This document shows, in pieces, positions 5,917-22,772 of a stretch of 64,000 nucleotides of DNA (positions are counted from its first letter, which is position 1; each line of letters starts with the position of its first letter). The position numbers were made by a program, and so were the translations under genes. The stretch lies in NCBI GenBank assembly GCA_023139105.1, contig JAGLOF010000023.1, positions 2,446 through 66,445 of the forward strand, read 5' to 3'. Source of the DNA: a bacterium. Lineage in GTDB: Bacteria > Zhuqueibacterota > QNDG01 > JAGLOF01. Under the pieces are notes generated by a model, which saw only the letters and a program-made list of their open reading frames with translations, did no database searches and was not told the origin of the DNA.

Positions 5917-5953
5917 AATAGGTATCTCCTGGATAAATAATTGCTTTGCCTAT

Positions 5954-7093: not shown

Positions 7094-8278
7094 CTAATTT
7101 TCATCTATCTCTCCCAGATACTGTTGATAGTTGACTAATGCAAGATAAGCCCAGGCCTGCCCCCAGCGAATAAATGGGGTTTTATTGGTCCAGCATTTTC
7201 CTCTTCTAAAATAGAAATATCCCTTTGAACTTTGCATTTTATCGAGAAACCATGTAGATATTCTATGTAAATCATGTTTGTTATCCCTGAACGCCGAAGC
7301 TCTGGAGAGGGGAATAAGCACTGATATATTGTGTATATCAACTGGATAAGTTTGGTCAGATAGGAATTTTGGAAAACCATCGCCTTTAAACAAATTGCTC
7401 GTGTAGAAGTCAAATCCCTTTATTATGACATTTTTTAATTCGATTGAAGGATATTTCTCATATATTGTGATCAAGGCATCAAGATTGAATCCTGTATGGT
7501 ATGAGTCAATGTGCTGCTGTATACTCCATTCACCATATGACCAGCTGCCATCTTCTTTCTGTCTTGAGATAGCAAAACTTGTGATTTTTTTTATCAAATC
7601 ATCCAAATCCGGAGATGGCATATATTGACTTGCTCTTGCAAGTAATTTCCCTCCAAGCAGGCTGGCATTGTATACCATAGATTTATCTTCAGGTGTATAT
7701 GCCAGACAAATTCCGTCAGATTTTTTTGTTCTGTGAATATCCATTAATATGAACTTAACTGAACTCAATACGGAATCAAGATAATCCTGATTTCCCCAAA
7801 GCTCATATGCATCTAAAAGAGCATCGGCTATAAATGCCGTATTGACGAGAGTTGGTGTACCCTTTTTAAATAGAAAACGTGTGTTCTGCCAATCAAAATT
7901 GTATCCCCAGCAATCTCCATGATAACCCTTGACTTTGGCGTCATTCAAAAGTGCAATTATCTCAAATGCTTTACGTTTGTATTTATCGTTCTGCGTCATT
8001 TTATATCGTTTAATATTGGCGGAGAGAAATAATCCCAGGCCTTTCGGATTATATCCTTTTTTTGTAAAAAATAAAGGCCTTAGATTTATAGGAGATCTTC
8101 GCATAAGCTGTGTCCATGCAACACGAATCCATTTTTTATTAAAGGATAAAGCACGAATGAGCGGACTGTTCAAGGCGTCAAAGGGATCATATCCTGTCCA
8201 GTTTTTGTCTTCTAAATATTGTTCCAGCTTTTCAATTGATCTATCAATAATATCTATTTGATTAGTTGATTTTTTCAT
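7094..8278 (-). CDS. Conserved hypothetical protein, probably an (alpha/alpha)6-toroid fold; function unknown
   Basis: 394 aa and soluble. Motifs such as GYDPFDALNSP, CWGYNFDWQNT, EDGSWSYGE and IRWGQAWAYLAL recur in uncharacterised proteins of polysaccharide loci. No catalytic assignment is possible from sequence alone. Confidence 0.35.
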   Translation of the reverse strand: MKKSTNQIDIIDRSIEKLEQYLEDKNWTGYDPFDALNSPLIRALSFNKKWIRVAWTQLMRRSPINLRPLFFTKKGYNPKGLGLFLSANIKRYKMTQNDKYKRKAFEIIALLNDAKVKGYHGDCWGYNFDWQNTRFLFKKGTPTLVNTAFIADALLDAYELWGNQDYLDSVLSSVKFILMDIHRTKKSDGICLAYTPEDKSMVYNASLLGGKLLARASQYMPSPDLDDLIKKITSFAISRQKEDGSWSYGEWSIQQHIDSYHTGFNLDALITIYEKYPSIELKNVIIKGFDFYTSNLFKGDGFPKFLSDQTYPVDIHNISVLIPLSRASAFRDNKHDLHRISTWFLDKMQSSKGYFYFRRGKCWTNKTPFIRWGQAWAYLALVNYQQYLGEIDEN

Positions 8279-9438
8279 GCTCTATCCCCTGTTAAAGAGC
8301 TATATAGCTTGTCGAACTTTTCAGAAACAGCCTCAAGACTATAGAGTTGACGTACTTTAACAATATTTGCCTGTCCCATGGCAGATCTCTTTTCAGGATA
8401 TTCTATCAAATGTTTAATTTTATCAGTCAATTGATCGATTGATTTTATATCCACAACATATCCGTTAATATCATTTTTTATCATCTCAGGAATAGCACCA
8501 ACACGTGTGGCTACAATGGGGAGCCCGGATGCCATGGCCTCCAGTACCACCATGGGAAAACCCTCAGAATAACTTGGTAAAACAAATATGGAAGAGTGTT
8601 GCAAGTGGTGAATAATTTCACTCTTTCCAAGGAAGCCTGTAATTTGTACTTTGTCATCCAAGGTGTGTGTCTTGATAAATGATCGCATAGCTTCTTCTTC
8701 TTTCCCGCTTCCGATAATGATCAAGTTACATTGGATGTCATTGGAAGACAATCTGTTAATTGCCTCCAGTATTTCGAAAACACCTTTTTCACGAGTAAAA
8801 TGAGATGCAATCATAAGAATTGATACGTTGTTATTTCCCTTGTATTGTGGTGTAAATTGAAAATCCGTGTACTCTATCATATTGGGTATGATCAATAGTC
8901 TATCTTGAATGTATGTACCCTTAAAAGCATCAGCTTGAAAATTTGATAATACAATTATCTGATGTGCCAGATTAAGTATGTGCAATATAATACGTTGTAT
9001 TATTTGTGGGTAAATCGCCAAAAATTCATCTAATTTACCGCCATGAATTTGCAATAATATTCGTTTTCCAAAAAAACGACATGTGATCAGATAGAGACTG
9101 TCTCTCCAAAATGCACCTGTATTCAATGAGGTATGTATGTGACAGGTATGAGGCTTTTTTTTGATTATCAATCTAATTAGTACAAACCAATCTTTGATGA
9201 TTTGTTTAATTTTTTTTATCAGGGATTCTACTTTGTAACTATCTGTTCCATGCATACGGGACATGGTTTCAACATGTAGAAATTGATATTTATCCTGCAA
9301 TGGACCATGAATAATATTTTGTACATGAGTGGCAATACCTCCGATAGTCGGTGGCACAGGGCCAAGCATAGCAATTCGAATATTTTTAGAAGCTGGATTA
9401 TTTTTCATATAAAAGTATACCCTTTTGACGCCCAACAA
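8275..9438 (-). CDS. Glycosyltransferase family 4 (GT-B)
   Basis: FVLPSYSEGFPMVVLEAMASGLPIVATRVGAIPEMIKNDINGYVV is the E-x7-E GT4 signature. The likely true start is MKNNPASKNIRIAMLG at 9408. Confidence 0.9.
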   Translation of the reverse strand: MLGVKRVYFYMKNNPASKNIRIAMLGPVPPTIGGIATHVQNIIHGPLQDKYQFLHVETMSRMHGTDSYKVESLIKKIKQIIKDWFVLIRLIIKKKPHTCHIHTSLNTGAFWRDSLYLITCRFFGKRILLQIHGGKLDEFLAIYPQIIQRIILHILNLAHQIIVLSNFQADAFKGTYIQDRLLIIPNMIEYTDFQFTPQYKGNNNVSILMIASHFTREKGVFEILEAINRLSSNDIQCNLIIIGSGKEEEAMRSFIKTHTLDDKVQITGFLGKSEIIHHLQHSSIFVLPSYSEGFPMVVLEAMASGLPIVATRVGAIPEMIKNDINGYVVDIKSIDQLTDKIKHLIEYPEKRSAMGQANIVKVRQLYSLEAVSEKFDKLYSSLTGDRA

Positions 9439-10813
9439 TATAAAGAATAGTAAAAATATACCATATCATGAATCCTGAAACATCCAATCTGAAGATTGGA
9501 GTGTAGACAAGTGCAAGAAAAGAAATAAAAATTACACCTTTATAGCCAAAAGATATCGCTTTCCAGTATGGATCATCAATTTTTAAGAATAATCTATGAT
9601 TTGTACGGTACAATGTAATTAATATCCAGCAAAATATGCCAAGACCAACAAAACCATATTCCAGACTAATTAGAGCGAATTCTGTGATACCGTAATATAT
9701 TGAGAGTGAATCCATAACAGAGTCTTTGTTTTTTACAAAACTCTCTGTCAGTGTGCCCGGGCCGTATCCAAATAAAAATTTAACAGGATTATTGATAAGT
9801 GTCTTAATTACAAGTTCAGCTACAGCAGCACGGCCAGAAGTTACTTCTTCATTCTTTTGATATGTATATGATGTTGCCCAATCCATTGCTCCCTGCGGAT
9901 TAGTAAAAAGTTCATTCCAATTAGGGCTTACATAGAGTGCCAGGGCGATAATAATTACAGCCAATGGTGTAAGTGGTAAAACCTTCTTGAAATTTTTCTT
10001 TCCGGCACGTATCAACAGGTAAGTAATTGATGCCATAGCAAATAAGGGATATACACGTTTTGGGCATGCATAATAGAATAATTGAAAATATACCATAAAA
10101 CCAAGATATTGCCATTTAGTACGATCATACAGATAGAACCCCAGACAAATACTATTAACAAACAGTGGAAGAATAGCTGATAAACCTCCTCCAAAATATG
10201 CGTATGTCCCAATTGCCCATTCTGTCCTGCCAAAAATAGTCATTTTAATTAAGGCAGTAGGAATCTGAATAATAAATATTCCCAAAAGAAGTAAGTTTAA
10301 TCTTTTCAGAAACTTTTCATCATAATTGATATGAACAAAAAGATAGAACATCACTGCGTATTTAAACATTTGCCGCATTGAAAAAAACATTGAAAGTGGA
10401 GATTGGTCATTTACAACCATTGAAATAACAGCCCATATGGTAAATGCTGCAAACGGTATATCAATATGAGTTCGCACTATTTCTTTATCAATAAGCCGCA
10501 TAATAACGACCTTGATTGTAAAAATCACCAATGCTACATCAGGAAGCCATGTGAAAGAAGCCGGTATATACCCTAGTGCAAAAAACCAATCAGCAAACCA
10601 TACTGGTAAAATAATTACATACGGAAGTATCTTTGAGTTATTAAAAAATAAGGCGCGACCTGCAATGAAAAACCCAATTAACATCAAAATAGGATCTTCC
10701 TGTATGACAAACAAGCCGACGACAGTCCCTGTTAAAGGAGCAATAATCAAATAATAAGTTAATCTTGATTGGTCGAATACATTACTGATAATTTGAGATA
10801 TAGAGAATTTCAT
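9398..10813 (-). CDS. O-antigen polymerase/ligase-like (Wzy-type) membrane protein
   Basis: 471 aa with about 10-12 hydrophobic helices and one larger loop, sitting between glycosyltransferases. Confidence 0.6.
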   Translation of the reverse strand: MKFSISQIISNVFDQSRLTYYLIIAPLTGTVVGLFVIQEDPILMLIGFFIAGRALFFNNSKILPYVIILPVWFADWFFALGYIPASFTWLPDVALVIFTIKVVIMRLIDKEIVRTHIDIPFAAFTIWAVISMVVNDQSPLSMFFSMRQMFKYAVMFYLFVHINYDEKFLKRLNLLLLGIFIIQIPTALIKMTIFGRTEWAIGTYAYFGGGLSAILPLFVNSICLGFYLYDRTKWQYLGFMVYFQLFYYACPKRVYPLFAMASITYLLIRAGKKNFKKVLPLTPLAVIIIALALYVSPNWNELFTNPQGAMDWATSYTYQKNEEVTSGRAAVAELVIKTLINNPVKFLFGYGPGTLTESFVKNKDSVMDSLSIYYGITEFALISLEYGFVGLGIFCWILITLYRTNHRLFLKIDDPYWKAISFGYKGVIFISFLALVYTPIFRLDVSGFMIWYIFTILYIVGRQKGILLYEK

Positions 10814-11988
10814 TTAAGTAAGTTCTGCAAAAATAATTCCAAACGAGCTGCTTGAGAAGACCATGTATAGTGTTCTTTGATTAATTTTGCAGCAAGCAAT
10901 CCTTGCGCTTTCAAATTATCTTTACTCTTCATTATTTCTATTAAAGCATCTTGCATTAATGCTGGTTTATCAGGTTGATAGTAATATGCAAATGCAGATT
11001 CACCAAGGACATCTCGATGGGCCTCAATATCAGTAACAACAACAGGATTGCCTGTTGCGAGGTATTCCATTAATTTTATTGGACTGCTGACACGCCATTC
11101 AATTAATGCCGGCAAAGGAATAATTCCGGCATCAATACATTCCAAATATTCTTTTACATCTTTATGCGGGATCGGATTGATTAATGTAAAATAATTAGTG
11201 CATCCGGTTTTATGGATTAATATTTCTAATTCTTTTCGTACAGCACCGTCTCCTAATAATATACAATGTATATCAGGCTCTTCATGTCTAATTTTATCAA
11301 TAGCATAAACAATATTTTCAAGGCCTCTATTTGGACTCATAGCACCATGATACATAAATACAAATTTATTGTCAAGACCAAGTTTCTCTCGAATATTGTT
11401 TGAAATTTTATCATCAGAAGTATTATCCTCTACCCAGCTATCCATAGCACCCGATGTCCAATACCCAACACGTTTTTTATTTATATCATAATCATGGCAC
11501 ACAACATGTCTCATAAAAGGTGTAATTACCGTTATACCATCAAATACCGATTTTGCAGAGTGAATGGCTTTCTTGAATTCCCAATGTTGAAATGATGCCA
11601 TGAAACCTTGTACTTCAACTGGTAGTGTACGAATATCCAGTACCCACCTGGGTGTTATCAATTTAATTTTTTTTAATAATATAAATGGCCATAATCCCTT
11701 AACGCCGGAAGGATGGAGTATGATAATATCCGGTTTTTTCACAAAGTTTAAAAAAAACAATATGAAGAATATTGAAACTGTTACTGAGAGTAATCCAAAT
11801 ACTGGTTTTTTAATAGATGGCAGATAATGAATAGAATTACCCAGGGAAAAATTTTCTTTACGTTCACGAAATCCTGCATATAGCTGAACATCATGTCCCA
11901 GGGCCTTTAATTGACGTACCATCTCTGTCCAGGTAGTATGGTCAATACTTGTATCAAGGCATTTTTCTACAATCCATGCAATTTTCAT
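10810..11988 (-). CDS. Glycosyltransferase (GT-B, GT4-like)
   Basis: C-terminal GIIPLPALIEWRVSSPIKLMEYLATGNPVVVTDIEAHRDVLG matches the GT-B nucleotide-sugar binding half. 4-nt overlap with the downstream gene. Confidence 0.75.
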   Translation of the reverse strand: MKIAWIVEKCLDTSIDHTTWTEMVRQLKALGHDVQLYAGFRERKENFSLGNSIHYLPSIKKPVFGLLSVTVSIFFILFFLNFVKKPDIIILHPSGVKGLWPFILLKKIKLITPRWVLDIRTLPVEVQGFMASFQHWEFKKAIHSAKSVFDGITVITPFMRHVVCHDYDINKKRVGYWTSGAMDSWVEDNTSDDKISNNIREKLGLDNKFVFMYHGAMSPNRGLENIVYAIDKIRHEEPDIHCILLGDGAVRKELEILIHKTGCTNYFTLINPIPHKDVKEYLECIDAGIIPLPALIEWRVSSPIKLMEYLATGNPVVVTDIEAHRDVLGESAFAYYYQPDKPALMQDALIEIMKSKDNLKAQGLLAAKLIKEHYTWSSQAARLELFLQNLLK

Positions 11989-12023: not shown

Positions 12024-13196
12024 TTAAATTCCTGCTAATTTGTCTAACATTTTATGAAAAGGTATTTCATATTTTGACCAATGATGATTTTCAACAAATC
12101 TGAGGGTTTCATGAACTTGTTCTTCACGTTTTGCGGGATTTTTCAATAAGAAAATTATCTTATCAGCAAGGTCTTCAATGTCGCCAGGCCTGAAAAAAGT
12201 CACCATTTTATCATCATAATATGTTGTGGCTGCCTTAATAGCCGATACAACAGAAGGAAGTCCCATAGCGTGGTATTCCATACATTTTGAGGATAGACCC
12301 TCACCGGCCAGAACACCATCTCTTTTAGGATCTATGCCAAGATCAGCTTTTTTAAGAATAAGCGCAACTTCTTTACGAGGTACCGGATCGTGCAAAATTA
12401 CAAATTTTTCTACCTTGAGACTGCATGCAAGTTCATGCAGCTGTAGCCTTGTTTTTCCTTGACCATAAATATGTAATTGAGTATTAGGAAACGCTTGTAA
12501 GACGCGCGGCAAAGCGGATATAGCCAGATCAATACCAAATATTTCAGTTAAATTTCCATGATAACTAAGAATATAAGGGCCCTTCTTTTTAACTGGTAAT
12601 TCACTACCGTCTCTAAAAAAAATGTCAGGGTCCGGAGTGTTCAAAACAACTGAACACTTTGCTGGAGTCACAGATCTACTGATCAGTGTTTTTTCCCAGA
12701 TTGTTGTAACAGTTATTACATGATGTGAAAACTTGCAAGCCATTTTTTCAACTAAACGTAACATTCGGATAATAATGTGATTGTATTCCAAATTAAATTT
12801 GCGTTGATAAAATTCAGGAACCAGATCGTGATTATCAAAGACGATCTTTGCACCAAACAACTTAGGGATAGTCATTGCAAAAATACCAAAATCAGGGATG
12901 TTGTGAAAATGCATAATTTGGTATTTTGATTTAAAATGTAATCTTGTACACAAACACCCTGCTTTCCAGAAAAATTTTAGCATTCTTGCAAGATATGTAA
13001 TAGGACTCTTTTCATTGTAATCTCTGCTTTGAATACGAAAGAGCCGAACTCCGTTCAGACTACCTTGAAAATCTTGTTCAGGCGTTCCAAGACAAATTAC
13101 ATCTACATCATCGCCGCGCTTGATTAATGATTCGCCATATCTATGAACACGATTGTCAAATTCGTATTGAGAGTATGATATCATACAAATTCTCAT
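12024..13196 (-). CDS. Glycosyltransferase (GT-B, GT4-like)
   Basis: LSSKCMEYHAMGLPSVVSAIKAATTYYDDKMVTFFRPGDIEDLADKI, together with the N-terminal MRICMISYSQYEFDNRVHRYGESL pattern. Confidence 0.75.
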   Translation of the reverse strand: MRICMISYSQYEFDNRVHRYGESLIKRGDDVDVICLGTPEQDFQGSLNGVRLFRIQSRDYNEKSPITYLARMLKFFWKAGCLCTRLHFKSKYQIMHFHNIPDFGIFAMTIPKLFGAKIVFDNHDLVPEFYQRKFNLEYNHIIIRMLRLVEKMACKFSHHVITVTTIWEKTLISRSVTPAKCSVVLNTPDPDIFFRDGSELPVKKKGPYILSYHGNLTEIFGIDLAISALPRVLQAFPNTQLHIYGQGKTRLQLHELACSLKVEKFVILHDPVPRKEVALILKKADLGIDPKRDGVLAGEGLSSKCMEYHAMGLPSVVSAIKAATTYYDDKMVTFFRPGDIEDLADKIIFLLKNPAKREEQVHETLRFVENHHWSKYEIPFHKMLDKLAGI

Positions 13197-14656
13197 GTAA
13201 TTTCCTCCACTCTAAGTCTCCTTTGTTTAGCAAGTAATTGCCTGAATCTTACAAATTCAACAATACGACGGAATGGTTTAAATTGAAAGAAAAGTTTTTC
13301 AACGAAATCAGTTGCAAATAAGGCGGCAATTATATATGCAAATGGACCATATTTCGCATACATTCTCTGTACAGCGCGACGGGTTACCTGTTTTTCTATA
13401 TTTCGGATTCTTTTCATCAAGACTACTCGCTCATCAAAACTGATTTCCGGAGTATCAAATACCGGTGTATTTTCATTTTCCGTAACAAAATTCAAGTATT
13501 CTTCAGGTTGTTTAATGAACCAACCATTATCTCTAACCGTATCAAAAAGCTCTGTGCCCGGATAAGGAATTGGATTATTTAATAGAACTCTTTTAATTGG
13601 ATATTTAGCTACAAGTCTCAATGCATCTTCAATATCTTCCATTGTTTCTTGCGGCATTGCAAGTATTACGAAAATCTTGACATCAAAACCCAATTCAGTC
13701 GCATTCTTGATACCTGCTTCAATCTGCTCAATAGTTTCACCTTTTTTATTGATTTTGAGCATACGATTATTTCCACCATCTACACCGAATGCAATATAAT
13801 TGAAACCGACTTCCCGCATTCTTTTAAGTAATGCGCGATCAGTCCTGTCTGCCCTGATTCCATTAGAACAACGAAATTCAATATCTTTAATGCCCCGTTT
13901 CTCCACATCGTCGCAAATATCGTAGACACGGCGGTTATCTAAAGTGAAATTATCATCATCATAGTTGAAAATGCGGTATCCCTTTCCATACCAATACTCA
14001 ATTTCATCAACAACATCCGTGGCACTTCTAAACCTCCATTTACGTGTCATCATTTTATTTGGACAGAAAACGCACTCATAAGGGCAACCCCTGCTTGAGT
14101 TGAAGGCCATTTCTTTTATGTATTTTTTCATTTCAAATTTTTCATATCTTGGCCATGATAAATCATCAAGATTTGCAGGTAATTCACGAATGCCATTAAA
14201 TACAACATCTTTAGCATTCCTGAAAATAATCCCTTTTATCTCTGAGATTTCACTATTTCCTTTGCATAATTCAATTAGAGTCGCTTCTCCCTCTCTCACA
14301 ACACCGTAATCAATTGATTCGCATTCCTGCATTACTTCTACTCGTAATACAGTAACATGTGGACCGCCCACAATAATTCCTGCGTCAGGTTTATAAGCTT
14401 TTATCTGATCTATTAGCGCATAAGATTTAAGGTACTCAAGAGAAACCAGTGTAATCCCAATTAAATCAGGATTGAATTCATCTATCTTTTTCTTCAAGTG
14501 CTTCCATTTATAACCTAATCTCATATCAAGGATTTCATATTCAATATGATTATCTAAAAGAGCTTGGGCAAGGAAACCAAGATTCTGTGGTGGACGCGCC
14601 GCACCTAAATAACTTGATGATGGCGGACTGATGAGCAATACTCTATTATAACGCAT
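13193..14656 (-). CDS. B12-binding (class B) radical SAM enzyme
   Basis: N-terminal B12-binding-like domain (VLLISPPSSSYLGAARPPQNLGFLAQAL) followed by FNSSRGCPYECVFCPN (the C-x3-C-x2-C cluster). Confidence 0.85.
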   Translation of the reverse strand: MRYNRVLLISPPSSSYLGAARPPQNLGFLAQALLDNHIEYEILDMRLGYKWKHLKKKIDEFNPDLIGITLVSLEYLKSYALIDQIKAYKPDAGIIVGGPHVTVLRVEVMQECESIDYGVVREGEATLIELCKGNSEISEIKGIIFRNAKDVVFNGIRELPANLDDLSWPRYEKFEMKKYIKEMAFNSSRGCPYECVFCPNKMMTRKWRFRSATDVVDEIEYWYGKGYRIFNYDDDNFTLDNRRVYDICDDVEKRGIKDIEFRCSNGIRADRTDRALLKRMREVGFNYIAFGVDGGNNRMLKINKKGETIEQIEAGIKNATELGFDVKIFVILAMPQETMEDIEDALRLVAKYPIKRVLLNNPIPYPGTELFDTVRDNGWFIKQPEEYLNFVTENENTPVFDTPEISFDERVVLMKRIRNIEKQVTRRAVQRMYAKYGPFAYIIAALFATDFVEKLFFQFKPFRRIVEFVRFRQLLAKQRRLRVEEIT

Positions 14657-15419
14657 GTATACCTCCGTTTTTCCGGATGTGCCTATTGATTATTTTCACT
14701 TGCTTATACGGAAGAGCACGATATACAGGCCCAACCTTCTCTTTATCGATATTTACAGATCCATGCTTTTTTTGAGCTATTAATTTAATTACTTCACACA
14801 TAAGCTCTGCACCGCGTAAAACTGCTCTGTCATTAATGGTGGCTACGCTGTCATTTCTATGTACTTCTACTCTCTCTCGTTTCAACAATGAACCCTTATC
14901 AATAGCAGCGTCGATAAAATGAACAGAAACGCCGGGTTTTTCTCCATTTTTTAATGCATGAGCATTTGCACCGATACCGCGATATTCCGGCAGCCAGCCG
15001 GGATGCGCATTCAAACAACCTATTGATGCTGTTTCAAAAACCTTTGTCTTGAGTATAGGAGCAGATACAATACACAGAAGTGCAGGTTGTAAACTGGTAA
15101 GTGCATCTATTCCTTGTGGTCCATTGAACGTATCTACTTTTATGAGTGGAACAGAGTGGCGTTTTGCGAGATCTACTATTGTTTGCCTGGAAATTTTCAT
15201 TGTTAAAATTTGAATTATCCTACGAAGAGTATCTTTCAGGCCGTCCTTTTTAATCTTTTCCAGAAATCGGCCTTTATTTTGACTACTTCCCATAGTTTCA
15301 ACGACCACAGCCTGTATAGGAATATTATTCTTTATGAACGTTTTAAAAAACACATGCCCAACAGGATTATCCGGATAGGCAAGCAGTACACATGAAGGTA
15401 TATTAAGAGATGAACCCAT
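14646..15419 (-). CDS. Formyltransferase-domain protein (Fmt/PurN N-domain type)
   Basis: LNAHPGWLPEYRGIGANAHAL supplies the Asn-x-His and LP-x-YRG elements. GVSVHFIDAAIDKGSLL supplies the catalytic Asp region. Confidence 0.8.
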   Translation of the reverse strand: MGSSLNIPSCVLLAYPDNPVGHVFFKTFIKNNIPIQAVVVETMGSSQNKGRFLEKIKKDGLKDTLRRIIQILTMKISRQTIVDLAKRHSVPLIKVDTFNGPQGIDALTSLQPALLCIVSAPILKTKVFETASIGCLNAHPGWLPEYRGIGANAHALKNGEKPGVSVHFIDAAIDKGSLLKRERVEVHRNDSVATINDRAVLRGAELMCEVIKLIAQKKHGSVNIDKEKVGPVYRALPYKQVKIINRHIRKNGGIHAL

Positions 15420-15422
15420 TCT

Positions 15423-16226
15423 TTAATCCTCGTCATTCCATGTTGCAAGCAGTGATTTCCCGGCCAAAACATGTTGACCTTCTTTTATCTTTAGACAAAG
15501 GTCAGGTAAAAGGGGTAATATTATATCCACTTGTGAACCGAATTTTATCATTCCAATACGTTCACCTGTCTCCATTTGCTGATCAGGTAGAACATAGGAT
15601 ACTATTCTCCTTACAAGTCGTGATGCAATTTGGACCATACCAATGTTGTATTTGCCGTGCTTGATAACAGTAGACATTCTTTCATTTTGTGTAATGGCTT
15701 CCATTGTTCTTAATGAATAGAAAGGTCCCGGATGTGCTTCCTGATAGACAATTTTACCAGAAATTGGCGTTCTATTAACATGAACATCCAATACGCTCAT
15801 CTCAATACCAATTATAATACCATCCGAATCCAATAATGCAGTATGTGCAAATTCTTTTAAAGCTATACTTCTTTTTTTCTTTTGTGCAAATGGTATTTCT
15901 CCGGCTTCAATTTGATGAATATATCTTATTGTTCCATCTGCCGGTGACACAATATTACCAGTTGAATCAGGTACTATGCGGTCAGGATCTCTGAAAAATC
16001 TAAATGCAATAATAATCAATGTTACGACAATTATCATTGTGCCTTCAAGGAATAATGTGATGATCAAAGGCAATGTACTTGTAATTAAGTATACGGCAAT
16101 ACTACAAAATAAACCAATAATCACTCCGGAAATCACGCCTATAGTCCGTGATATGTTTATTTTCCAGGATAATATCGACAATAAAAGGATACCGGTAATA
16201 GTACCCATTAAAATGGTAATAATCAT
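15423..16226 (-). CDS. Phosphatidylserine-decarboxylase-family (pyruvoyl) enzyme with an N-terminal membrane anchor
   Basis: Three N-terminal hydrophobic helices. GIEMSVLDVHVNRTPISGKIV and GERIGMIKFGSQVDIILP (the Gly-Ser self-cleavage site) match short-form Psd proteins. Confidence 0.75.
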   Translation of the reverse strand: MIITILMGTITGILLLSILSWKINISRTIGVISGVIIGLFCSIAVYLITSTLPLIITLFLEGTMIIVVTLIIIAFRFFRDPDRIVPDSTGNIVSPADGTIRYIHQIEAGEIPFAQKKKRSIALKEFAHTALLDSDGIIIGIEMSVLDVHVNRTPISGKIVYQEAHPGPFYSLRTMEAITQNERMSTVIKHGKYNIGMVQIASRLVRRIVSYVLPDQQMETGERIGMIKFGSQVDIILPLLPDLCLKIKEGQHVLAGKSLLATWNDED

Positions 16227-16227
16227 A

Positions 16228-17424
16228 TTAAAAACCTCTTTTAAAAATCAGAAAAGGTAATAAAAATAATTCTACAAAGAATGGTAGGGGATCTTTTAGA
16301 GACCATACTGCATAGGTTTTAGCACCTTTTAATGTACGCATGTATTCCCACAAAGTCCATCGACCTTTTAAACTTTCAGATAGTCCTACGGCAAGATCAG
16401 TTAATAATCTTATCCATCGTGCATTATGATAGTCTGACGGAGTAATTTTTTCTCCAATACACCAAAGATAAGTGAGATATGGCAGGTTTACGCCAGCTGC
16501 AATTGCCAATGTATGCCAGCCCCAAATTCTGGGATTAACCTCTAAAAATTTAAATTGCCCGTCTCTTGGATCTTTTATAAATTCGACTTCTCCCAAACCG
16601 GAATAACCCACGCTCTTCAAATAGCGAGTACCCATGGTTTCCAATTCCGGTTCACGTACTATTTCAGCAAAAGTACTGGCCTGCCCAAAATCCATAGGAT
16701 GCTGCCTGATACGTTTTGCTACAATTCTGGCCAGTGTTGAACTTCCGTCAAACAATGGACAGAATGAGTATAAGTTATTCGAAACATCTGGAATTTCTTC
16801 TTGTATTAAAATTTCACTGGCAGGAATAATCTGTACGGCTTTTTTATAAGCATCTTGCAATTCAATCATATTCCCGGCAGGGAAAACTTTTTTACCTGTC
16901 TGCTTAAAAAAGGATCTCATGATTGCAGGTTTAATTAATGCCGGAAATGGGCCGTCCCATTTTGCCACATCTTCAATTGACTGAGGATATGCTGTCTTTG
17001 GTATGGGTATACCAATTTTTTCTGCTAATTTATAACCGATACCTTTGTGATAAAGTGGTTCAATAAATTCCCATGCAGGTGTCCAAAGATTGAAATATTT
17101 GGATAATTCGGCATGATTTATTGACAAAAAGTGTACAGTCTCATCGTCTATGGGGAAAAGCACTGCTTTTTGTAATGAATATTTTTCACAAGATTTCAGT
17201 AAAAATTGGAGATATTTTTCTCTATCAGAAAGATCCGGGGATTTTATATACTGAGAGACATATCTGGAAAACTTACTTATATTGGGCTCATGATCCATTA
17301 ATACAACTGATACGCCTGATTCACCTAATGCCCGAATAGCACCTAAACCTTGAAAATGCCCCCCAAGAACTATTGCTTTGAAAGTATGTTTGTTTTTCGA
17401 AGACTTTTTCAATAGATTGTTCAT
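16228..17424 (-). CDS. ATP-grasp carboxylate-amine ligase (COG3919-like)
   Basis: N-terminal Rossmann-like AIVLGGHFQGLGAIRALGESGVSVVLMD and the ATP-grasp core GLGEVEFIKDPRDGQFKFLEVNPRIWGWH. Confidence 0.8.
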   Translation of the reverse strand: MNNLLKKSSKNKHTFKAIVLGGHFQGLGAIRALGESGVSVVLMDHEPNISKFSRYVSQYIKSPDLSDREKYLQFLLKSCEKYSLQKAVLFPIDDETVHFLSINHAELSKYFNLWTPAWEFIEPLYHKGIGYKLAEKIGIPIPKTAYPQSIEDVAKWDGPFPALIKPAIMRSFFKQTGKKVFPAGNMIELQDAYKKAVQIIPASEILIQEEIPDVSNNLYSFCPLFDGSSTLARIVAKRIRQHPMDFGQASTFAEIVREPELETMGTRYLKSVGYSGLGEVEFIKDPRDGQFKFLEVNPRIWGWHTLAIAAGVNLPYLTYLWCIGEKITPSDYHNARWIRLLTDLAVGLSESLKGRWTLWEYMRTLKGAKTYAVWSLKDPLPFFVELFLLPFLIFKRGF

Positions 17425-19718
17425 CCTTCTGAAGTTATTTTTTCTGAACTATAATCAACATAGTTTGAAAAATATTCACTATATGCATATGGATCCTGCT
17501 TTTTGATTCCTGTAAGTATAGCACCTATTAAACTGGCTTTTACATATTTCAACAATTTCAATGTCTTCATCAAAGATTCTCGTGGTGTCTGATTTGCTTT
17601 TACAACCAAGATCACACCGTCCATTAAGGAAGAAAGAACAACAGTATCAGTGACAGGAAGAATTGGAGCACTATCGAATATAATTGCTCCATACTCTTTC
17701 CTCACCTCAGTGATGAAATCAGGTAAAGCACGGGAACTTATGAGTTCCGAGGCATTTTTCACGTCAAGACCTGCACCCATAATATAAAGTCCATGAATAG
17801 TGGTCTCTCTTATTGTGGAGTGCCAATCTACATCTCCACTTAATATATTTGCAAATCCATGTTTTCTATGACTACCGGTAAATAAAATATCTATAACAGG
17901 CTTGCGAAGATCTGCATCTATCAATAATGTTTTAACACCTTTTTGTGCAATGGTAATAGCCAGATTTGCTGCTGTTGTAGATTTCCCTTCTGAAGGATTA
18001 GGACTTGTAACCAGTAAAGTACGCCATGGTTTTTTTGTGTCAGAAAAATACAGAGCTGTTCTTATGCTTCTATATGCTTCTGCAATAGAAGAGTGTGTAT
18101 GCTTATGTGCAATTAAATGAGGATAGATTGATTTTGCTCGTGAAATTTCCTGACTCTTTCTTTTTGTACTGAAAAGAGATTTAAAATTATCACTACTCTG
18201 AATTACACTCCCCAATAAACGTACTTGAAATTTTTCTATATCCTGTGCGGAGCGTATTGCATCCTGAAAATAGTCTCTACTATACGCCATTCCTACACCG
18301 AGCAGCATTCCAAAAAAGAAGCCCATAAAAAGGTTGCGTCCTTTTTTTGGCATTACAGCTACTCTTGGAGGCTCAGCCAGATCAACTACTTTAACAATAT
18401 CCATCTGCCCTGCTTCACGTATCTTTATCTGCTCATGATTTTCGCGTAAAGTAAAATACAGATTATTGGTTACTTGAAGCTCAAGCTCCAGACTGGCTAA
18501 TTTTAAACTCTTATCAGGCAGGTTCTCTAACCTTTTTTTGTATTCAGCCAAGATTGTTTTCTGTTTATTTTTTCTGGCATTCAAACTGATTTCTTCAGTT
18601 TCAAGATTAAAAATTTCTTCAATTAAATTTGCAGATTTATCAAGAGGATTTTGATTTCTCATATCCGTATTGATAAACGTGGATAGTTCCTGAGTCAATC
18701 TCTTTTTCAAACCGTCTATATGAGACTGCAGCCGTCGTAATTGAGGAGATTGCTCAAATGCTATCCCTTCAGAGATTAATTGAGCTTCCAAAGATGCTCT
18801 CTCTGACTCTTTTCCGCCAATAAGATCCTGGATACTTTTTATTGCAGGCGTTGAATACTGCTGTATGTCTGTAGTAATGTATTTATGCGTTTCCTTAAGT
18901 TCTTTCCTCAAAAAAGATAATTTCTTTTCAGTTGTTTCAAGATTTGTCCGTGTTTTATCCAGTTCAGATTGAAACATAGCAGATTGCTCAACCAATTGTT
19001 GAGTTTCTTCGGATAGTGAAACTACTTTTTCTTTCTTTTGATAATCAGCCAATGCCTTTTGTGCTCTCGCTAATTGTGACTCTATTTCAGCTAATTTGTT
19101 TTCAATAAATAATTTTGTTCTGACTACTTCTCCTCTGGTATCAGCCTGACTATATGCTTTATATGCTCTAACCCAGGAATTAGCTAAAATTGCAGCTTCC
19201 CATGCAGTTGAAGATCTTGTTTTTAAATATATAATATCTGATTCAGGATCCGCTGTTACACGAGCATTTCTTTGAAAGCGAAGAATTAAATCTTGAAAGG
19301 TTGGTGGTTTGGGAGGTATCGCCTTTTTTCCCAATCGTGCTAATATTTTTGTCTTCAATGTTTTTTTTGCAACTTTTTGGCGATACCCAAGAATCTGCAA
19401 CGAGTCCGCATATGTTATTTTTTGAAGAGCACTTATAACTTCTGCAGCTAAGGTTCTACTTTGAAGATGAGTAACCTGGTTGTTAATTAAACTTTTTTGT
19501 GCCAGGAAACTAGGCATATTGAATATTTGATTCTGTATCTCGCCGCTATCCCGGATTGAAAGTGTTGCAGTTGCTTCATAGACATATTCTGCCGTAAAAG
19601 TCATATACGTTACAGTTATCATTACACTGATAAAAGCAAGCATTACAATCATCCAATGTCGTCTTATCGGACCTAATAAAGTCTTAATATCAAAAATCCG
19701 AATTGCATTAGTTTCCAC
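17421..19718 (-). CDS. Wzc-type polysaccharide co-polymerase fused to a BY tyrosine autokinase
   Basis: Architecture: TM1, a long coiled-coil region, TM2 (FMGFFFGMLLGVGMAY), Walker A LLVTSPNPSEGKSTTAANLA, Walker B IIFDSAPILPVTD, and a Tyr-rich tail (DPYAYSEYFSNYVDYSS). Confidence 0.9.
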   Translation of the reverse strand: METNAIRIFDIKTLLGPIRRHWMIVMLAFISVMITVTYMTFTAEYVYEATATLSIRDSGEIQNQIFNMPSFLAQKSLINNQVTHLQSRTLAAEVISALQKITYADSLQILGYRQKVAKKTLKTKILARLGKKAIPPKPPTFQDLILRFQRNARVTADPESDIIYLKTRSSTAWEAAILANSWVRAYKAYSQADTRGEVVRTKLFIENKLAEIESQLARAQKALADYQKKEKVVSLSEETQQLVEQSAMFQSELDKTRTNLETTEKKLSFLRKELKETHKYITTDIQQYSTPAIKSIQDLIGGKESERASLEAQLISEGIAFEQSPQLRRLQSHIDGLKKRLTQELSTFINTDMRNQNPLDKSANLIEEIFNLETEEISLNARKNKQKTILAEYKKRLENLPDKSLKLASLELELQVTNNLYFTLRENHEQIKIREAGQMDIVKVVDLAEPPRVAVMPKKGRNLFMGFFFGMLLGVGMAYSRDYFQDAIRSAQDIEKFQVRLLGSVIQSSDNFKSLFSTKRKSQEISRAKSIYPHLIAHKHTHSSIAEAYRSIRTALYFSDTKKPWRTLLVTSPNPSEGKSTTAANLAITIAQKGVKTLLIDADLRKPVIDILFTGSHRKHGFANILSGDVDWHSTIRETTIHGLYIMGAGLDVKNASELISSRALPDFITEVRKEYGAIIFDSAPILPVTDTVVLSSLMDGVILVVKANQTPRESLMKTLKLLKYVKASLIGAILTGIKKQDPYAYSEYFSNYVDYSSEKITSEG

Positions 19719-20970
19719 GAAACCGCTCCCAAAAATCTATTAAGTCAATACCGTCAATATCACCACTAACTGCAATACATGATTTTTTTCCAGACGGCCA
19801 GTTTGCCAATTTTAAAATTTTTTCAGATGAATTTTTGACAATTTCATCAAGAAGTTCAGATGTAATTTTTGAAACATTCTCAGGTAACTGTACAGCAGCA
19901 TCATTCAAATTAGTATCAAGGATATAGGAATAACCGCTATTTTTTATAGTAGAAAGCCACTGCTCTTTTTGATTTGCATTAACAGCAATAGCAGGCATGT
20001 AGTTAGCGGTCCATTTATGTGACAAATCAGAAACGATCCTCTCACCTGCCTGCCATACTTCCAAATTACATGGTTTGTCGCTCATATTTGCCAATTCCCA
20101 ATTCTGAGCAGCATTTTCAAATTTAAACCGAAACTCTGATCGCTTCTTCCACCAAGAAGAAATTTCGTTAAGTGAGGCCATCCAAATTGTACCTCGATTC
20201 ATTGCCTCTTTTAGAATATTTTCCAGGGCAGTTTTGAAATAAACAAAGCGTTCCGGATGCAATTGGAGTATAAAAAGTGATTCTTTTTTATAGTGTTCCT
20301 CAAGCATTTGATATAGAATATTTGTAATAGCACTATTATCTTTTAATTCTAATCTTTCAATTAAGATGTCATCATCTGGTACAGATACCGGAAGATGAAT
20401 GAAATTATCATTAATTTCAGGCAGACATTTTGTGTTACAAAATTTTGTAGCTTCATATGTGTTTAATATATTTTGATAATTGTCCCAAATTTTTGAATTA
20501 AATTGTTCTTGTTTTACACCGGTCCAAACAATTGCGTTACTACTATCCCAGCTATATCCAGTACATTTTAGTACTTCAACGATGTGTGCATTACTTCTCA
20601 AATATGGATATCTAAATCCGCAAGTATTAATACCATGCAAATTGAAAATATCTATTGCTTTTTGTGCATGCTGCATAACATCTCTATCCGGTAATTGAGT
20701 GTAATCAATATGCTTCAAACCATGAACAGCAAATTCTACGCCTAAATCTTGGGCTTCCTTAAAAATTTCAGGATGCCGTTTGACAACGGATGCAGTTACA
20801 GGAAAAGTTGGGTGTATTTTATATTTCAGACATAATTCTATCATCTCAAATAAATTAGTGCAATATCTATTCGGCTTGAAACCATATCGCTGAAATATAG
20901 ATCTCACCCGCAAAAACACCCGATCAAATGATCGGGTGCGTATGCGTTTTACAATCTGTTGTATTCGCAT
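19708..20970 (-). CDS. NodB/CE4-like polysaccharide deacetylase homologue with a long C-terminal extension
   Basis: AVHGLKHID (His-x-x-x-His) and FRYPYL (R-x-P-Y) are present. The first motif reads TFPVTA instead of TFDD. Confidence 0.55.
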   Translation of the reverse strand: MRIQQIVKRIRTRSFDRVFLRVRSIFQRYGFKPNRYCTNLFEMIELCLKYKIHPTFPVTASVVKRHPEIFKEAQDLGVEFAVHGLKHIDYTQLPDRDVMQHAQKAIDIFNLHGINTCGFRYPYLRSNAHIVEVLKCTGYSWDSSNAIVWTGVKQEQFNSKIWDNYQNILNTYEATKFCNTKCLPEINDNFIHLPVSVPDDDILIERLELKDNSAITNILYQMLEEHYKKESLFILQLHPERFVYFKTALENILKEAMNRGTIWMASLNEISSWWKKRSEFRFKFENAAQNWELANMSDKPCNLEVWQAGERIVSDLSHKWTANYMPAIAVNANQKEQWLSTIKNSGYSYILDTNLNDAAVQLPENVSKITSELLDEIVKNSSEKILKLANWPSGKKSCIAVSGDIDGIDLIDFWERFRGN

Positions 20971-20981
20971 AAAATTTCCAG

Positions 20982-21986
20982 TTATTGTCCGTGATGTGAA
21001 AGAGCCGTTTCTTCAACAGTATATGTTTCGGTTTTTCTATGCCCATTCATCGACTGAAGCCATTCATAAGTTAATTTCAGGCCCTTGCGTAGATTGATTG
21101 ATGGTGACCACCTGAGTACTCGTCTTATTTTTTCTATATTAAGTACTCTTCTACGTATATTGTCAATATCTCTTTTATCTACATAGACCGGGCCAATTGA
21201 TGAACCTGCAAGCTCGGCAATATATGTTGCCAATTCATTTACACTTGTTTCTATTCCGGAAGCAACATTAAATACTTCCCCAACTGCTTTTGGGCTTAAG
21301 GCTGCAAGCAGGGTAGCCTCTACAGCATCAGTAACAAATGTAAAATCTCTGGTCTGTTCTCCATCTCCATGAACATATGGTGCATAGCCATCCATTGCTC
21401 TATCAAAGAATTTTGAAACAACACCACAGTAAGGATTTGTAGGTGACTGATTAATGCCATAGACATTTGAGTACCTTACCATACTTACTTCTACACCGTA
21501 AGACTCATAAAATGCAGAGCAGAAGTTCTCAGCCGACATCTTACTGGCTGCATAAGGACTAAGTGTACTTACCCGATCATCTTCATTAATAGGCAAATAG
21601 CGTGGATTTCCATAAACTGATGCTGAAGAAGAGTATACAATTCTCTCAATTCCGTGATTTCTTGCAGCTTGTAATATGTTAAACATGCCGCCGGTATTTA
21701 CTTGAAAATCCAATTGAGGTGAAAGAGTTGAGACAATTATATTCCGCACAGCCAGGTTGAATACCATATCAGAACGGCGTATCAGTCTCTCAATAAGATC
21801 ATAATCCGTTACAGTCCCCTCAATAAATTCAATATCTTTCAGAACGGCAATATTCTCTTTTTTACCTGTAAACAAATCATCAAGCACTGTTACATTGGCC
21901 CCATCTTTTACCAGGGCTGTAACCAAATTTGAACCCACAAAACCAGCTCCCCCTGTTACAAGCACTTTTTTATTCTTGAATCTCAT
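20982..21986 (-). CDS. NAD-dependent nucleotide-sugar epimerase/dehydratase (extended SDR)
   Basis: KVLVTGGAGFVGSNLV (Rossmann motif) and YAASKMSAE (Y-x3-K). Confidence 0.9.
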   Translation of the reverse strand: MRFKNKKVLVTGGAGFVGSNLVTALVKDGANVTVLDDLFTGKKENIAVLKDIEFIEGTVTDYDLIERLIRRSDMVFNLAVRNIIVSTLSPQLDFQVNTGGMFNILQAARNHGIERIVYSSSASVYGNPRYLPINEDDRVSTLSPYAASKMSAENFCSAFYESYGVEVSMVRYSNVYGINQSPTNPYCGVVSKFFDRAMDGYAPYVHGDGEQTRDFTFVTDAVEATLLAALSPKAVGEVFNVASGIETSVNELATYIAELAGSSIGPVYVDKRDIDNIRRRVLNIEKIRRVLRWSPSINLRKGLKLTYEWLQSMNGHRKTETYTVEETALSHHGQ

Positions 21987-22007: not shown

Positions 22008-22772
22008 TTATTTAGCATCGCGATTAAAAAAAATAAATGGAATCGTTTTAAACAAAATTTTCATATCAAACCATAGTGTCCAATGGTCTACATACCATAA
22101 ATCGAATTTAATTGCTTCTTCATAGTTCTTGGGAGTTAATCTTAAATTAATTTTTGACCAACCTGTTAAACCCGGTTTCACCTGATGACGACGATGGTAC
22201 CAATCTTTGTATTCACTTACTTCATATGTAGGATGTGGTCGTGGTCCAACAAGGCTCATTTCACCTTTAAAAATATTCCAAAATTGTGGTAATTCATCAA
22301 GGCTGGTCTCTCTAAGTAATTTTCCAATTTTTGTTACTTTACCATGGACAAAATCGGTGTACTCTTTGAGTAATCTGTCTCTTTCTTCCGGAGTTGGATC
22401 TCCGTCTTGTAGAAGTTGTTTTATGTATGCTTTATGATCTTCTGCGGAATCATAGTGATGCATAGTCCTGAATTTAAATATTTCAAATTCATTTCCAAGT
22501 TCACGTATTCTTTTTTGTTTAAAAAAGACAGGTCCCTTGGAGTTACTTTTAATTATCACTGCAATCAAGACCCAGAGAGGAAGAGAAATTAATAATGCAG
22601 CACTGGCTCCCATAATATCTATAAATCTTTTTGATTGTAATTGCCAATAGAGGGATTTCTCATCCCCAACAATAAGAACAGAACTATTGTCAATTGCCAG
22701 GGTCGAATACTCTGAATTAATATGTGATTTGATTGTAGTTTTCATCATCATATCCAATAATTCTTTAGGCAA
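22008..22772 (-). CDS. Initiating phosphoglycosyl transferase (bacterial sugar transferase family, small WbaP/EpsL-like)
   Basis: KRFIDIMGASAALLISLPLWVLIAVIIKSNSKGPVFFKQKR, FKFRTM and SLDELPQFWNIFKGEMSLVGPRPHP. Confidence 0.9.
   Translation of the reverse strand: MPKELLDMMMKTTIKSHINSEYSTLAIDNSSVLIVGDEKSLYWQLQSKRFIDIMGASAALLISLPLWVLIAVIIKSNSKGPVFFKQKRIRELGNEFEIFKFRTMHHYDSAEDHKAYIKQLLQDGDPTPEERDRLLKEYTDFVHGKVTKIGKLLRETSLDELPQFWNIFKGEMSLVGPRPHPTYEVSEYKDWYHRRHQVKPGLTGWSKINLRLTPKNYEEAIKFDLWYVDHWTLWFDMKILFKTIPFIFFNRDAK

Follow-up and report, generated by a model that had tools for sequence, protein, structure and literature searches.

The subject of this analysis is a cassette of four consecutive, translationally coupled genes on the minus strand of a 64-kb stretch of bacterial DNA from contig JAGLOF010000023.1 (the window). 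They encode a predicted ATP-grasp ligase, a membrane-anchored protein of the phosphatidylserine decarboxylase (PSD) family, a formyltransferase and a radical S-adenosylmethionine (SAM) enzyme, and all four are housed in a Wzx/Wzy-type polysaccharide locus that extends from about 3040 to about 23451. Gene coordinates were taken from the open reading frame (ORF) table of the window, and domains were assigned by Pfam and NCBIfam profile searches. The cassette is composed as follows:

16228-17424, minus strand: predicted ATP-grasp carboxylate-amine ligase, 398 aa; half of the conserved core
15423-16226, minus strand: PSD-like pyruvoyl decarboxylase proenzyme with a three-transmembrane (3-TM) anchor and a Gly230-Ser231 processing site, 267 aa; the other half of the core
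14646-15419, minus strand: formyltransferase, a stand-alone Formyl_trans_N domain, 257 aa; lineage-restricted accessory
13193-14656, minus strand: class B (B12-binding) radical SAM enzyme, 487 aa; frequent accessory

The ATP-grasp gene overlaps the preceding Wzc gene by 4 nt and is separated from the PSD gene by a gap of 1 nt. The PSD and formyltransferase genes lie 3 nt apart in the same frame (window 15417-15428), the formyltransferase and radical SAM genes overlap by 11 nt, and the radical SAM gene overlaps the next one, encoding a GT4 glycosyltransferase, by 4 nt. The translations contain the motifs EVEFIKDPRDGQFKFLEVNPRIWGWH, IKFGSQVDIILP, CPYECVFC and LNAHPGW...HFIDAAIDKG. For the four genes, with their coordinates, junctions and motifs, the ORF table is identical to the initial annotation of this DNA, and the four domain identities proposed there were confirmed by Pfam, with weak matches in the case of the ATP-grasp protein.

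The PSD-like protein belongs to family PF02666 (PS_Dcarbxylase, E = 1e-41), its residues 74-260 aligning with positions 5-197 of the 198-position profile. D97 (in the SPADG motif), H149, G230 and S231 are invariant in 42 sequences, and H149 lines up, by inspection, with the motif of the essential His144 of the E. coli enzyme. The AlphaFold (AF2) model (pLDDT 90.7) contains three N-terminal helices (residues 2-22, 27-48 and 54-78) followed by a beta-rich domain, which supports the three-helix membrane anchor suggested earlier. A sequence search of the PDB with this protein gave no match; the best fold matches of the model were the E. coli PSD (6l06, E = 9e-6) and, in second place, PsiD (8x4q). 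The invariant Asp, His and Gly-Ser residues, together with these two fold matches, make it very probable that the protein is an active pyruvoyl decarboxylase with a changed substrate. Tyr137, a phosphate-binding position of E. coli PSD, was considered as a substrate indicator and dropped, the alignment between long-type and short-type PSDs being too uncertain.

We compared the cassette PSDs with five canonical short PSDs (from Paracoccus, Ruegeria, Azospirillum, Nocardia and Methylobacterium). The cassette proteins match each other at 150 bits or more, whereas they match the canonical short enzymes at about 100 bits, with 33-36% identity and only from residue 66 on. They have three TM helices as opposed to one, and carry a 13-residue insertion with an invariant lysine (K116) that is absent from the canonical short PSDs. 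The two groups also differ at positions that do not vary within the cassette clade, most notably beside the pyruvoyl serine, where the cassette signature reads FGSQVD against FGSR.D in the canonical enzymes, and IASRLVRRI replaces IAGLvARRI. The window protein falls below all NCBIfam PSD equivalog cutoffs (NF003685, 167.7 against 183; NF003678, 167.8 against 225; TIGR00164, 162.8 against 230). An exhaustive search of 1.84 billion representative proteins returned 4,373 PSD-family clusters at 50% identity, 117 of them at E <= 1e-30, and the matches shift from full-length proteins of about 270 aa to proteins of about 210 aa, starting near residue 60, at about 135-140 bits. The gene context differs as well: pssA adjoins all five canonical short PSD genes examined, while searches of about 90 cassette loci and of the window for a PssA homologue or a CDP-alcohol phosphatidyltransferase motif found neither. 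The orthologues of this PSD in related genomes do not stand beside pssA. The window itself contains no pssA and no second PSD-family gene within its 64 kb. By these comparisons, the cassette PSD belongs to a separate clade and is very probably not the housekeeping phospholipid enzyme.

For the ATP-grasp protein, ATPgrasp_Ter and CPSase_L_D2 are the sole Pfam matches at E <= 0.01, both weak. Its AF2 model (pLDDT 92) has an ATP-grasp fold, and Foldseek matches, with E values down to 7e-18, include biotin carboxylase, carbamoyl-phosphate synthase (CPS), PurK, PylC and RizA. The predicted ATP/Mg residues K165, Q208, E279, E281, N297 and R299 are invariant in 41 homologues. No match to the TupA-like family was obtained with Pfam at E <= 0.01, nor was the protein assigned to any NCBIfam equivalog, such as one for D-aspartate ligase. 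The formyltransferase matches PF00551 (Formyl_trans_N, 2e-16), and the segments NaHPGwlP.yRG and HfId.gIDtG, which hold the Asn-x-His...Asp catalytic set, are conserved in 17 homologues. Among solved structures, the Fmt N-domain and PurN come closest to it, ahead of sugar N-formyltransferases. In NCBIfam its best models are those of Fmt, PurN and ArnA, all far from being reached, and it scores below every cutoff (ArnA, 57 against 777; PRK07579, 45 against 238). The fourth protein contains a Radical_SAM domain (PF04055, 8e-25) and a B12-binding domain (PF02310, 1e-15), with a CxxxCxxC motif (CPYECVFC) conserved across 39 orthologues. It reaches no NCBIfam equivalog either, the best models (ApyD, HpnJ and BchE) giving 153 bits against cutoffs of 750, 578 and 481.

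To survey the gene neighbourhoods from the ATP-grasp side, we searched 185,579 species genomes for two conserved ATP-grasp peptides. At least 219 of these genomes (219 confirmed loci), from more than 15 phyla, encode the family, and nearly all of them are metagenome-assembled genomes (MAGs). The taxa include KSB1, Chloroflexota, Planctomycetota, Kiritimatiellia, Ignavibacteriae, Calditrichaceae and Aminicenantes, as well as Actinomycetota, Geobacteraceae, Syntrophales, Spirochaetota, Binatia, Entotheonella and others. Eighty of the at least 219 loci were retrieved, and partner counts are pooled without phylogenetic correction. A PSD gene lies within 6 kb of the ATP-grasp gene in 66 of the 75 loci with room for it; in 51 of these 75 it is the next gene downstream, on the same strand. 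The survey from the PSD side gave the reciprocal picture, with an ATP-grasp gene directly upstream in 9/10 contexts. Four of these contexts, taken from unlabelled branches of the PSD tree, all show this upstream gene, and one of them reads radical SAM, formyltransferase, ATP-grasp, PSD. Because the same adjacency recurs in 51/75 loci from many phyla and in 9/10 PSD-side contexts, the arrangement is far beyond chance. Partner frequencies in well-flanked loci, defined by at least 5 kb on both sides of the ATP-grasp gene (n = 39), were as follows:

PSD: 33/39
B12-radical SAM orthologue (at least 400 bits): 19/39
420-aa CE4-like protein: 15/39
Hexapeptide acyltransferase: 15/39
FemAB-like protein: 11/39
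Formyltransferase: 5/39 (9/39 with weak matches counted)
cdsA: 0/39

The initial annotation had asked whether the four genes are neighbours in other genomes. They are co-conserved, also outside the clade of the window, and the invariant core is the ATP-grasp/PSD-like pair, the radical SAM enzyme and the formyltransferase being present in only part of the loci. The formyltransferase is found in the clade of the window, and locus L091 has it as well, with the genes arranged differently. A Kiritimatiellia MAG carries ATP-grasp, PSD and radical SAM genes without a formyltransferase gene, beside hexapeptide and FemAB-like genes, and in another MAG the ATP-grasp/PSD pair lies near sugar-nucleotide genes. 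The frequent extra partners, CE4-like, hexapeptide acyltransferase and FemAB-like proteins, are all three present in the window too. The 420-aa CE4-like gene is directly upstream of the ATP-grasp gene in 8 of its 27 occurrences. Among loci of at least 12 kb (n = 55), 42 contain glycan genes of the GT4, phosphoglycosyltransferase (PGT), Wzx, Wzy or Wzc type.

The other genes of the window's polysaccharide locus and its upstream border are:

23780-24598, minus strand: cdsA, directly upstream of the OmpR-type regulator after a 330-bp gap
22765-23451, minus strand: OmpR-type response regulator; head of the syntenic block
22008-22772, minus strand: priming PGT; head of the syntenic block
20982-21986, minus strand: extended short-chain dehydrogenase/reductase (SDR), sugar epimerase/dehydratase; head of the syntenic block
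19708-20970, minus strand: CE4 (NodB-type) deacetylase-like protein, cytoplasmic, 420 aa; Polysacc_deac_1 at 1e-12
17421-19718, minus strand: Wzc-type co-polymerase/tyrosine autokinase (NCBIfam TIGR01007/TIGR01005); syntenic in the window's clade
12024-13196, minus strand: GT4 glycosyltransferase (Pfam GT4/GT1 domains), overlapping the radical SAM stop
10810-11988, minus strand: GT4 glycosyltransferase
9398-10813, minus strand: Wzy-like polytopic protein, 471 aa; no Pfam or NCBIfam match; syntenic in L001 and L003
8275-9438, minus strand: GT4 glycosyltransferase
7094-8278, minus strand: conserved protein, 394 aa; only a sub-threshold GH88-like match; syntenic in L001 and L003
5954-6976, minus strand: FemAB-like transferase (TIGR03019, 227 bits against a cutoff of 260)
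5425-5916, minus strand: hexapeptide acyltransferase
4535-5428, minus strand: second CE4 deacetylase
3040-4557 (annotated start 4542), minus strand: Wzx

The nearest relatives of the PSD (45-52% identity) are found in loci with the same order: regulator, PGT, SDR, CE4-like, Wzc, ATP-grasp, PSD, formyltransferase, radical SAM and GT4. The regulator/PGT/SDR head is repeated in L003, L005, L012, L014, L016, L017, L019, L022 and L076, and orthologues of the GT4 at 12024-13196 follow the cassette in L001, L003, L005, L011, L012, L014, L022, L076 and others. The synteny with cdsA (L014, L016, L017, L019, L022 and L076) holds throughout the window's own clade, with 0/39 in other phyla. The SDR remained ambiguous by NCBIfam (LegB, RmlB, GalE and TviC types) and no sugar could be named from it. 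Transfer RNA and Rfam scans of the window gave no matches, and promoter and terminator scans of 11.5-24.8 kb gave counts not above those of shuffled sequence.

Several further features of the locus and of related loci were observed. The 420-aa CE4-like protein is without the N-terminal NodB motif 1, with a conserved TFPVTA in place of TFDD. It retains HxxxH, RxPY and LxH, and a conserved C-terminal segment, 'wrWP...tGDiD...Df..R', resembles a displaced motif 1; from its sequence, the protein may be a circularly permuted CE4 deacetylase. The trio of CE4 deacetylase, hexapeptide acyltransferase and FemAB-like genes (window 4535-6976) recurs with the cassette in unrelated phyla (L008/L046, L019, L090). 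Its products are candidates for exposing amines and for capping or extending them, and the trio may form another module for aminoacylation of the polymer on which the cassette acts. Directly after Wzx, window 1-2832 (minus strand) encodes a 1224-aa secreted Pel9A-like beta-helix protein with PKD domains, which runs past the window start (L101 11732-15406) and may degrade the same polysaccharide as a lyase or depolymerase. The gene next to it carries a Por_Secre_tail domain (type IX secretion) and is followed, after about 8 kb, by a FolD gene. Other than the Pel9A-like protein, only unrelated genes were found in the 10 kb past the window start.

Elsewhere in the survey, a divergent second ATP-grasp paralogue (110-170 bits to the window protein) is found just downstream of the PSD gene or near it in L058, L068, L075, L024, L064 and L065, from Geobacteraceae, Ignavibacteriaceae and others, which hints at the addition of a second residue. 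A Priestia megaterium plasmid (L095, NZ_CP137801.1, 7033-11237 of the locus) carries genes for a PIG-L deacetylase, a GT4, an ATP-grasp protein and a kinase-like protein. This type of locus is present in about 37 Priestia plasmids, among exosporium and spore-coat genes, and its ATP-grasp protein is 32% identical to that of the window and annotated as 'carbamoyl-phosphate synthase'. These genes may specify an aminoacylated exosporium glycan in a cultivable host, and Priestia could serve as an experimental model for the ATP-grasp family.

Gene fusions were found on both sides of the pair. Two PSD-ATP-grasp fusions (P0286 and P0290; 695 and 696 aa) come from different sources, are less than 50% identical to each other and both contain the ATP-grasp family motifs. 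The PSD domain is also fused to Formyl_trans_N (P0251, a singleton), to a class I methyltransferase (P0322) and, with weak support, to a GNAT domain (P0386). On the ATP-grasp side we found an ATP-grasp+FemAB-like fusion (L035 9929-12325) and a GNAT-GNAT-ATP-grasp protein, and a GT4 is fused to a hexapeptide transferase as well; fusion ORFs were recorded at L035 9929-12325, L026 7566-10217 and L047 6808-8673.

The partner genes bear on the acceptor of the putative ligase. Enzymes that generate amines show the strongest enrichment among the partners. A CE4-like deacetylase or a DegT aminotransferase occurs in 36 of the 55 loci of at least 12 kb, the deacetylase only in 19, DegT only in 15 and both in 2. 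This near-exclusivity (Fisher p = 0.008, phylogeny not corrected for) is expected if either enzyme supplies the same thing, and a sugar amine is therefore favoured as acceptor. The uronic acid acceptor proposed earlier is less favoured by this distribution, and UDP-sugar 6-dehydrogenase (Ugd) motifs are present in just 8/80 loci and in none of the genes of the window. The absence of a DegT/WecE-type aminotransferase, already noticed at the locus, was confirmed for the whole 64-kb window and for 10 kb beyond its start; the only weak DegT match, at 52002-53216, belongs to a class I/II aminotransferase. The formyltransferase of this locus therefore has no conventional aminotransferase to account for it. 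Distant ATP-grasp relatives in cultured bacteria, with no PSD, occur in PIG-L deacetylase-GT4-ATP-grasp arrangements (the Priestia plasmids) and in glycan loci with DegT and AsnB genes (a Bradyrhizobium plasmid). AsnB-like genes are present in about 9 to 12 loci; the possibility that these amidases serve as an alternative to PSD was rejected, as they co-occur with PSD.

Fem transferases acylate a free amine. In PSD-less loci, a FemAB-like transferase gene follows the ATP-grasp gene (L039, L063, L069 and L089) or is fused to it (L035). Since PSD is fused to a formyltransferase in one case and to a methyltransferase in another, the product of decarboxylation should carry a modifiable amine. Given the partner statistics, the replacement of PSD by FemAB-like proteins and the PSD fusions, we favour an order in which the ligase acts first, followed by the decarboxylase and then by capping of the amine, on a sugar amine. 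Pyruvoyl decarboxylases form a Schiff base with the free amine of their substrate, and a conserved His contacts the leaving carboxylate (PMC7952604). An amino acid amidated through its alpha-amine cannot therefore be a substrate, and attachment must be by the side chain. The idea that an amino acid is ligated and then decarboxylated by a pyruvoyl enzyme, put forward in the initial annotation, fails for an amide made through the alpha-amine and requires the side-chain linkage. Such chemistry has precedents: D-aspartate ligase is an ATP-grasp enzyme that uses beta-aspartyl-phosphate and joins Asp by its side chain to an amine (PMC4155827), side-chain-linked N-acetyl-D-aspart-4-yl amino sugars occur in O-antigens (PMC10609480), and PsiD and Ao-ADC1 are PSD-fold enzymes with non-lipid substrates.

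We put at close to an even chance the possibility that the cassette is a conserved accessory module for glycan tailoring, in which the ATP-grasp ligase and the membrane-anchored PSD-like enzyme act in succession on one substituent, a side-chain-tethered amino acid on a sugar. The substrates, order of steps and products given below are those that we infer for this module. The sugar would be lipid-linked (or nucleotide-linked) and would be modified on the cytoplasmic side of the membrane, ahead of Wzx export. The cytoplasmic location of ATP, 10-formyl-THF and SAM, the positive-inside topology of the PSD-like protein (which places its catalytic domain in the cytoplasm) and the presence of Wzx point to an undecaprenyl-linked repeat unit before export. 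A CE4-type deacetylase (here 19708-20970 and/or 4535-5428), or a DegT aminotransferase in other genomes, would provide the sugar amine, the former by exposing it. The ATP-grasp enzyme would convert an acidic amino acid (Asp or Glu type) into an acyl-phosphate at its side-chain carboxylate and join it to the sugar amine as an amide, as peptidoglycan D-aspartate ligases do, leaving the alpha-amino and alpha-carboxyl groups free. The resulting X-CH2-CH(NH3+)-COO- end group would mimic the serine head group of phosphatidylserine, and the PSD-like enzyme would form a Schiff base with it and remove the alpha-carboxyl, yielding an aminoacyl group of the beta-alanyl or 4-aminobutyryl type with a new primary amine. 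The formyltransferase would cap this amine with formate; in other lineages a hexapeptide or GNAT acetyltransferase, a methyltransferase or a FemAB-like aminoacyl transferase would act on it. The target of the B12-radical SAM enzyme would be an unactivated carbon within the unit, which it would probably methylate.

A number of observations do not sit easily with this scheme. Every catalytic motif of true PSDs is intact in the PSD-like enzyme, which is compatible with activity on phosphatidylserine. Sequence and fold searches of the PDB with the ATP-grasp protein found only generic carboxylase-type relatives and gave no clue to its substrate; many of its homologues are labelled 'D-aspartate ligase' by JGI, an automated name that gives a lead. 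In 19/55 loci neither a CE4-like deacetylase nor DegT is within reach. The PSD-formyltransferase fusion P0251 could be a stop-codon error, as it is a single sequence and the window PSD and formyltransferase genes lie 3 nt apart in frame; with this spacing, a single stop loss would yield such a fusion. No Asp/Glu racemase gene was found near any cassette, by one query of low sensitivity. Finally, we know of no polysaccharide with an N-formyl-beta-alanyl or similar substituent.

The opposite order of steps would resemble the modification of the C. jejuni HS:2 capsule. The PSD-like enzyme would then make the amine by decarboxylating either phosphoserine, to ethanolamine phosphate, or a free amino acid, and the ATP-grasp enzyme would amidate the carboxylate of a uronic acid in the repeat unit. 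The C. jejuni ATP-grasp domain Cj1438C amidates glucuronic acid (GlcA) with ethanolamine-P or serinol-P (PMC11800379), as the initial annotation had pointed out; that comparison holds for the amidation, but Cj1438C is TupA-like and the window protein lies outside this family. PsiD and Ao-ADC1 show that PSD-fold enzymes can accept free amino acids, the extended SDR of the syntenic block could be a uronate epimerase, and the few loci with Ugd motifs, like those with AsnB-like genes, can be counted on the same side. However, the product of this route has no free amine, so that the formyltransferase, methyltransferase and FemAB-like partners, whether fused or adjacent, would lose their substrate on the moiety. 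The window locus contains no Ugd-type gene, phosphatase partners were not observed, an enzyme with a soluble substrate would not be expected to have a 3-TM anchor, and the CE4/DegT exclusivity indicates a sugar amine. We consider this order unlikely.

Two other explanations keep the PSD-like enzyme in lipid metabolism. The enzyme might make phosphatidylethanolamine (PE) locally, with the ATP-grasp protein joining a glycan or amino-acid carboxylate to the PE amine, to give either a glycan anchored to PE or an N-aminoacyl-PE, with formylation or methylation as the next step. Archaeosortase systems, with their dedicated PssA/PssD paralogues, offer an analogy, and the window protein has a weak match (104 bits; cutoff 240) to NF038088, a model for an archaeosortase-linked decarboxylase. 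This idea also draws on the full set of true-PSD catalytic motifs at 33-36% identity, on the predicted integral membrane character of the protein, on cdsA lying five genes upstream in the window's clade and on the formyltransferase being closest to Fmt, which formylates an aminoacyl alpha-amine. However, pssA was not found in about 90 loci, cdsA is missing from all 39 loci outside that clade, a change of substrate is indicated by the insertion peculiar to the cassette PSDs and by the substitutions beside the pyruvoyl serine, and the partners are sugar-amine enzymes and glycosyltransferases rather than lipid enzymes; a lipid-directed role of this kind seems to us improbable. More improbable still, to the point that we give it very little credence, is an ordinary phospholipid enzyme sitting by accident in the exopolysaccharide (EPS) operon, with the other three genes independent of it, as the initial annotation had offered as its alternative. 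It is true that this is the sole PSD-family gene of the window and that cdsA is nearby. A homologue with 42% identity also stands alone (P0110; L007 8001-8810, CP070710.1), in a 2.4-Mb genome labelled Deltaproteobacteria. We rejected this solitary copy as evidence for a housekeeping role because it nests among cassette-linked PSDs in the tree and adjoins a DDE transposase gene; it is probably a relocated remnant of a cassette. The accidental placement is further contradicted by an ATP-grasp adjacency kept across more than 15 phyla, by the PSD-ATP-grasp fusions, by the separation of the clade and its scores below every NCBIfam PSD cutoff, by pssA never being adjacent (against 5/5 for canonical short PSDs) and by a sporadic distribution, in at least 219 of 185,579 species genomes.

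The proposed tailoring module can be compared with several known systems. Bacterial Psd (E. coli 6L06/7CNW, and the short-type psd-pssA operons of Alphaproteobacteria and Actinomycetes) shares with the cassette enzyme the Pfam family, fold, Gly-Ser autoprocessing site, SPADG Asp and catalytic His (cassette H149, E. coli H144), and both are membrane-associated; in contrast, the cassette PSD is never found by pssA and almost always by an ATP-grasp gene in glycan loci. Among PSD-fold enzymes retargeted from phosphatidylserine with their pyruvoyl chemistry, PsiD (L-tryptophan decarboxylase of the psilocybin pathway) and Ao-ADC1 of Aspergillus oryzae (arginine decarboxylase) are fungal, soluble and act on free amino acids, with no ligase partner and no glycan context. 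The window formyltransferase shares the Formyl_trans_N fold, the Asn-His-Asp set and the polysaccharide-locus setting with the sugar N-formyltransferases (WbkC, the ArnA N-domain, VioF, FdtF/QdtF). It differs from them in being closer to the Fmt N-domain and PurN and in belonging to a locus without a nucleotide-amino-sugar pathway, and its domain is fused to a PSD-like one in P0251.

In mycothiol and bacillithiol synthesis, a GT4 transfers a GlcNAc residue, a deacetylase removes the N-acetyl group and a ligase acylates the free amine with an amino acid. The triad of deacetylase, GT4 and ATP-grasp in the Priestia plasmids, and the GT4, CE4 and ATP-grasp genes of the window, recall this pathway, although its ligases are not ATP-grasp enzymes, no decarboxylation follows and the products are small thiols rather than polymers. 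The amine-making enzymes of the C. jejuni capsule pathway are reportedly dependent on pyridoxal phosphate (PLP). That HS:2 system (Cj1438 C-domain, Cj1437, Cj1435) resembles the cassette in combining an ATP-grasp enzyme with an amine-supplying one to add a small group of the amino-alcohol type to a capsular sugar (PMC11800379). It differs in its TupA-like ligase, in that the amine is made first, by soluble enzymes, in its uronic-acid acceptor, and in having no pyruvoyl enzyme, formyltransferase or radical SAM enzyme. In the peptidoglycan of Enterococcus and Lactococcus, Aslfm/AslA are ATP-grasp enzymes that join an amino-acid side-chain carboxylate to an amine, as proposed for the cassette ligase, and a second enzyme, AsnH, then processes the free alpha-carboxyl by amidation, whereas the cassette would remove it (PMC4155827). 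Their acceptor is a Lys of the peptidoglycan precursor instead of a polysaccharide sugar, and the likeness rests on JGI labels.

We found no published description of the PSD-like/ATP-grasp pair, of the cassette or of such a decoration route in literature searches on cassette components and polysaccharides, in agreement with the initial annotation. The parts belong to known superfamilies and the decoration of glycans with amino acids is known, while the enzyme logic and a glycan-associated PSD clade appear undescribed. With slightly more reserve than for the module itself, we propose that a clade of the PSD family was recruited from phospholipid metabolism to decarboxylate an amino acid tethered by an ATP-grasp ligase to a lipid-linked sugar, giving N-formylated and/or C-methylated decorations of the beta-alanyl or 4-aminobutyryl type on the surface polysaccharides of more than 15 mostly uncultured phyla. 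If true, this would be the first glycan-directed enzyme of the PSD family and the first pyruvoyl enzyme in polysaccharide tailoring, and PSD-fold enzymes that act on something other than lipids, a short list with PsiD and Ao-ADC1, would then include bacterial members and macromolecular substrates.

The biosynthesis of amino-acid-derived N-acyl groups in polysaccharides is, as far as we know, largely uncharacterised. A ligase and a pyruvoyl decarboxylase acting as a pair on a tethered amino acid would represent a new logic for the aminoacyl decoration of glycans, and the set of partners (CE4/DegT, FemAB-like, formyl-, acetyl- and methyltransferases, B12-radical SAM) provides a testable scheme for such groups. 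The clade is sizeable: of some 4,400 PSD-family clusters (50% identity), it accounts for about 117. Since every genome pipeline calls such proteins 'phosphatidylserine decarboxylase', lipid reconstructions of many uncultured phyla may credit these organisms with a PE pathway that does not exist.

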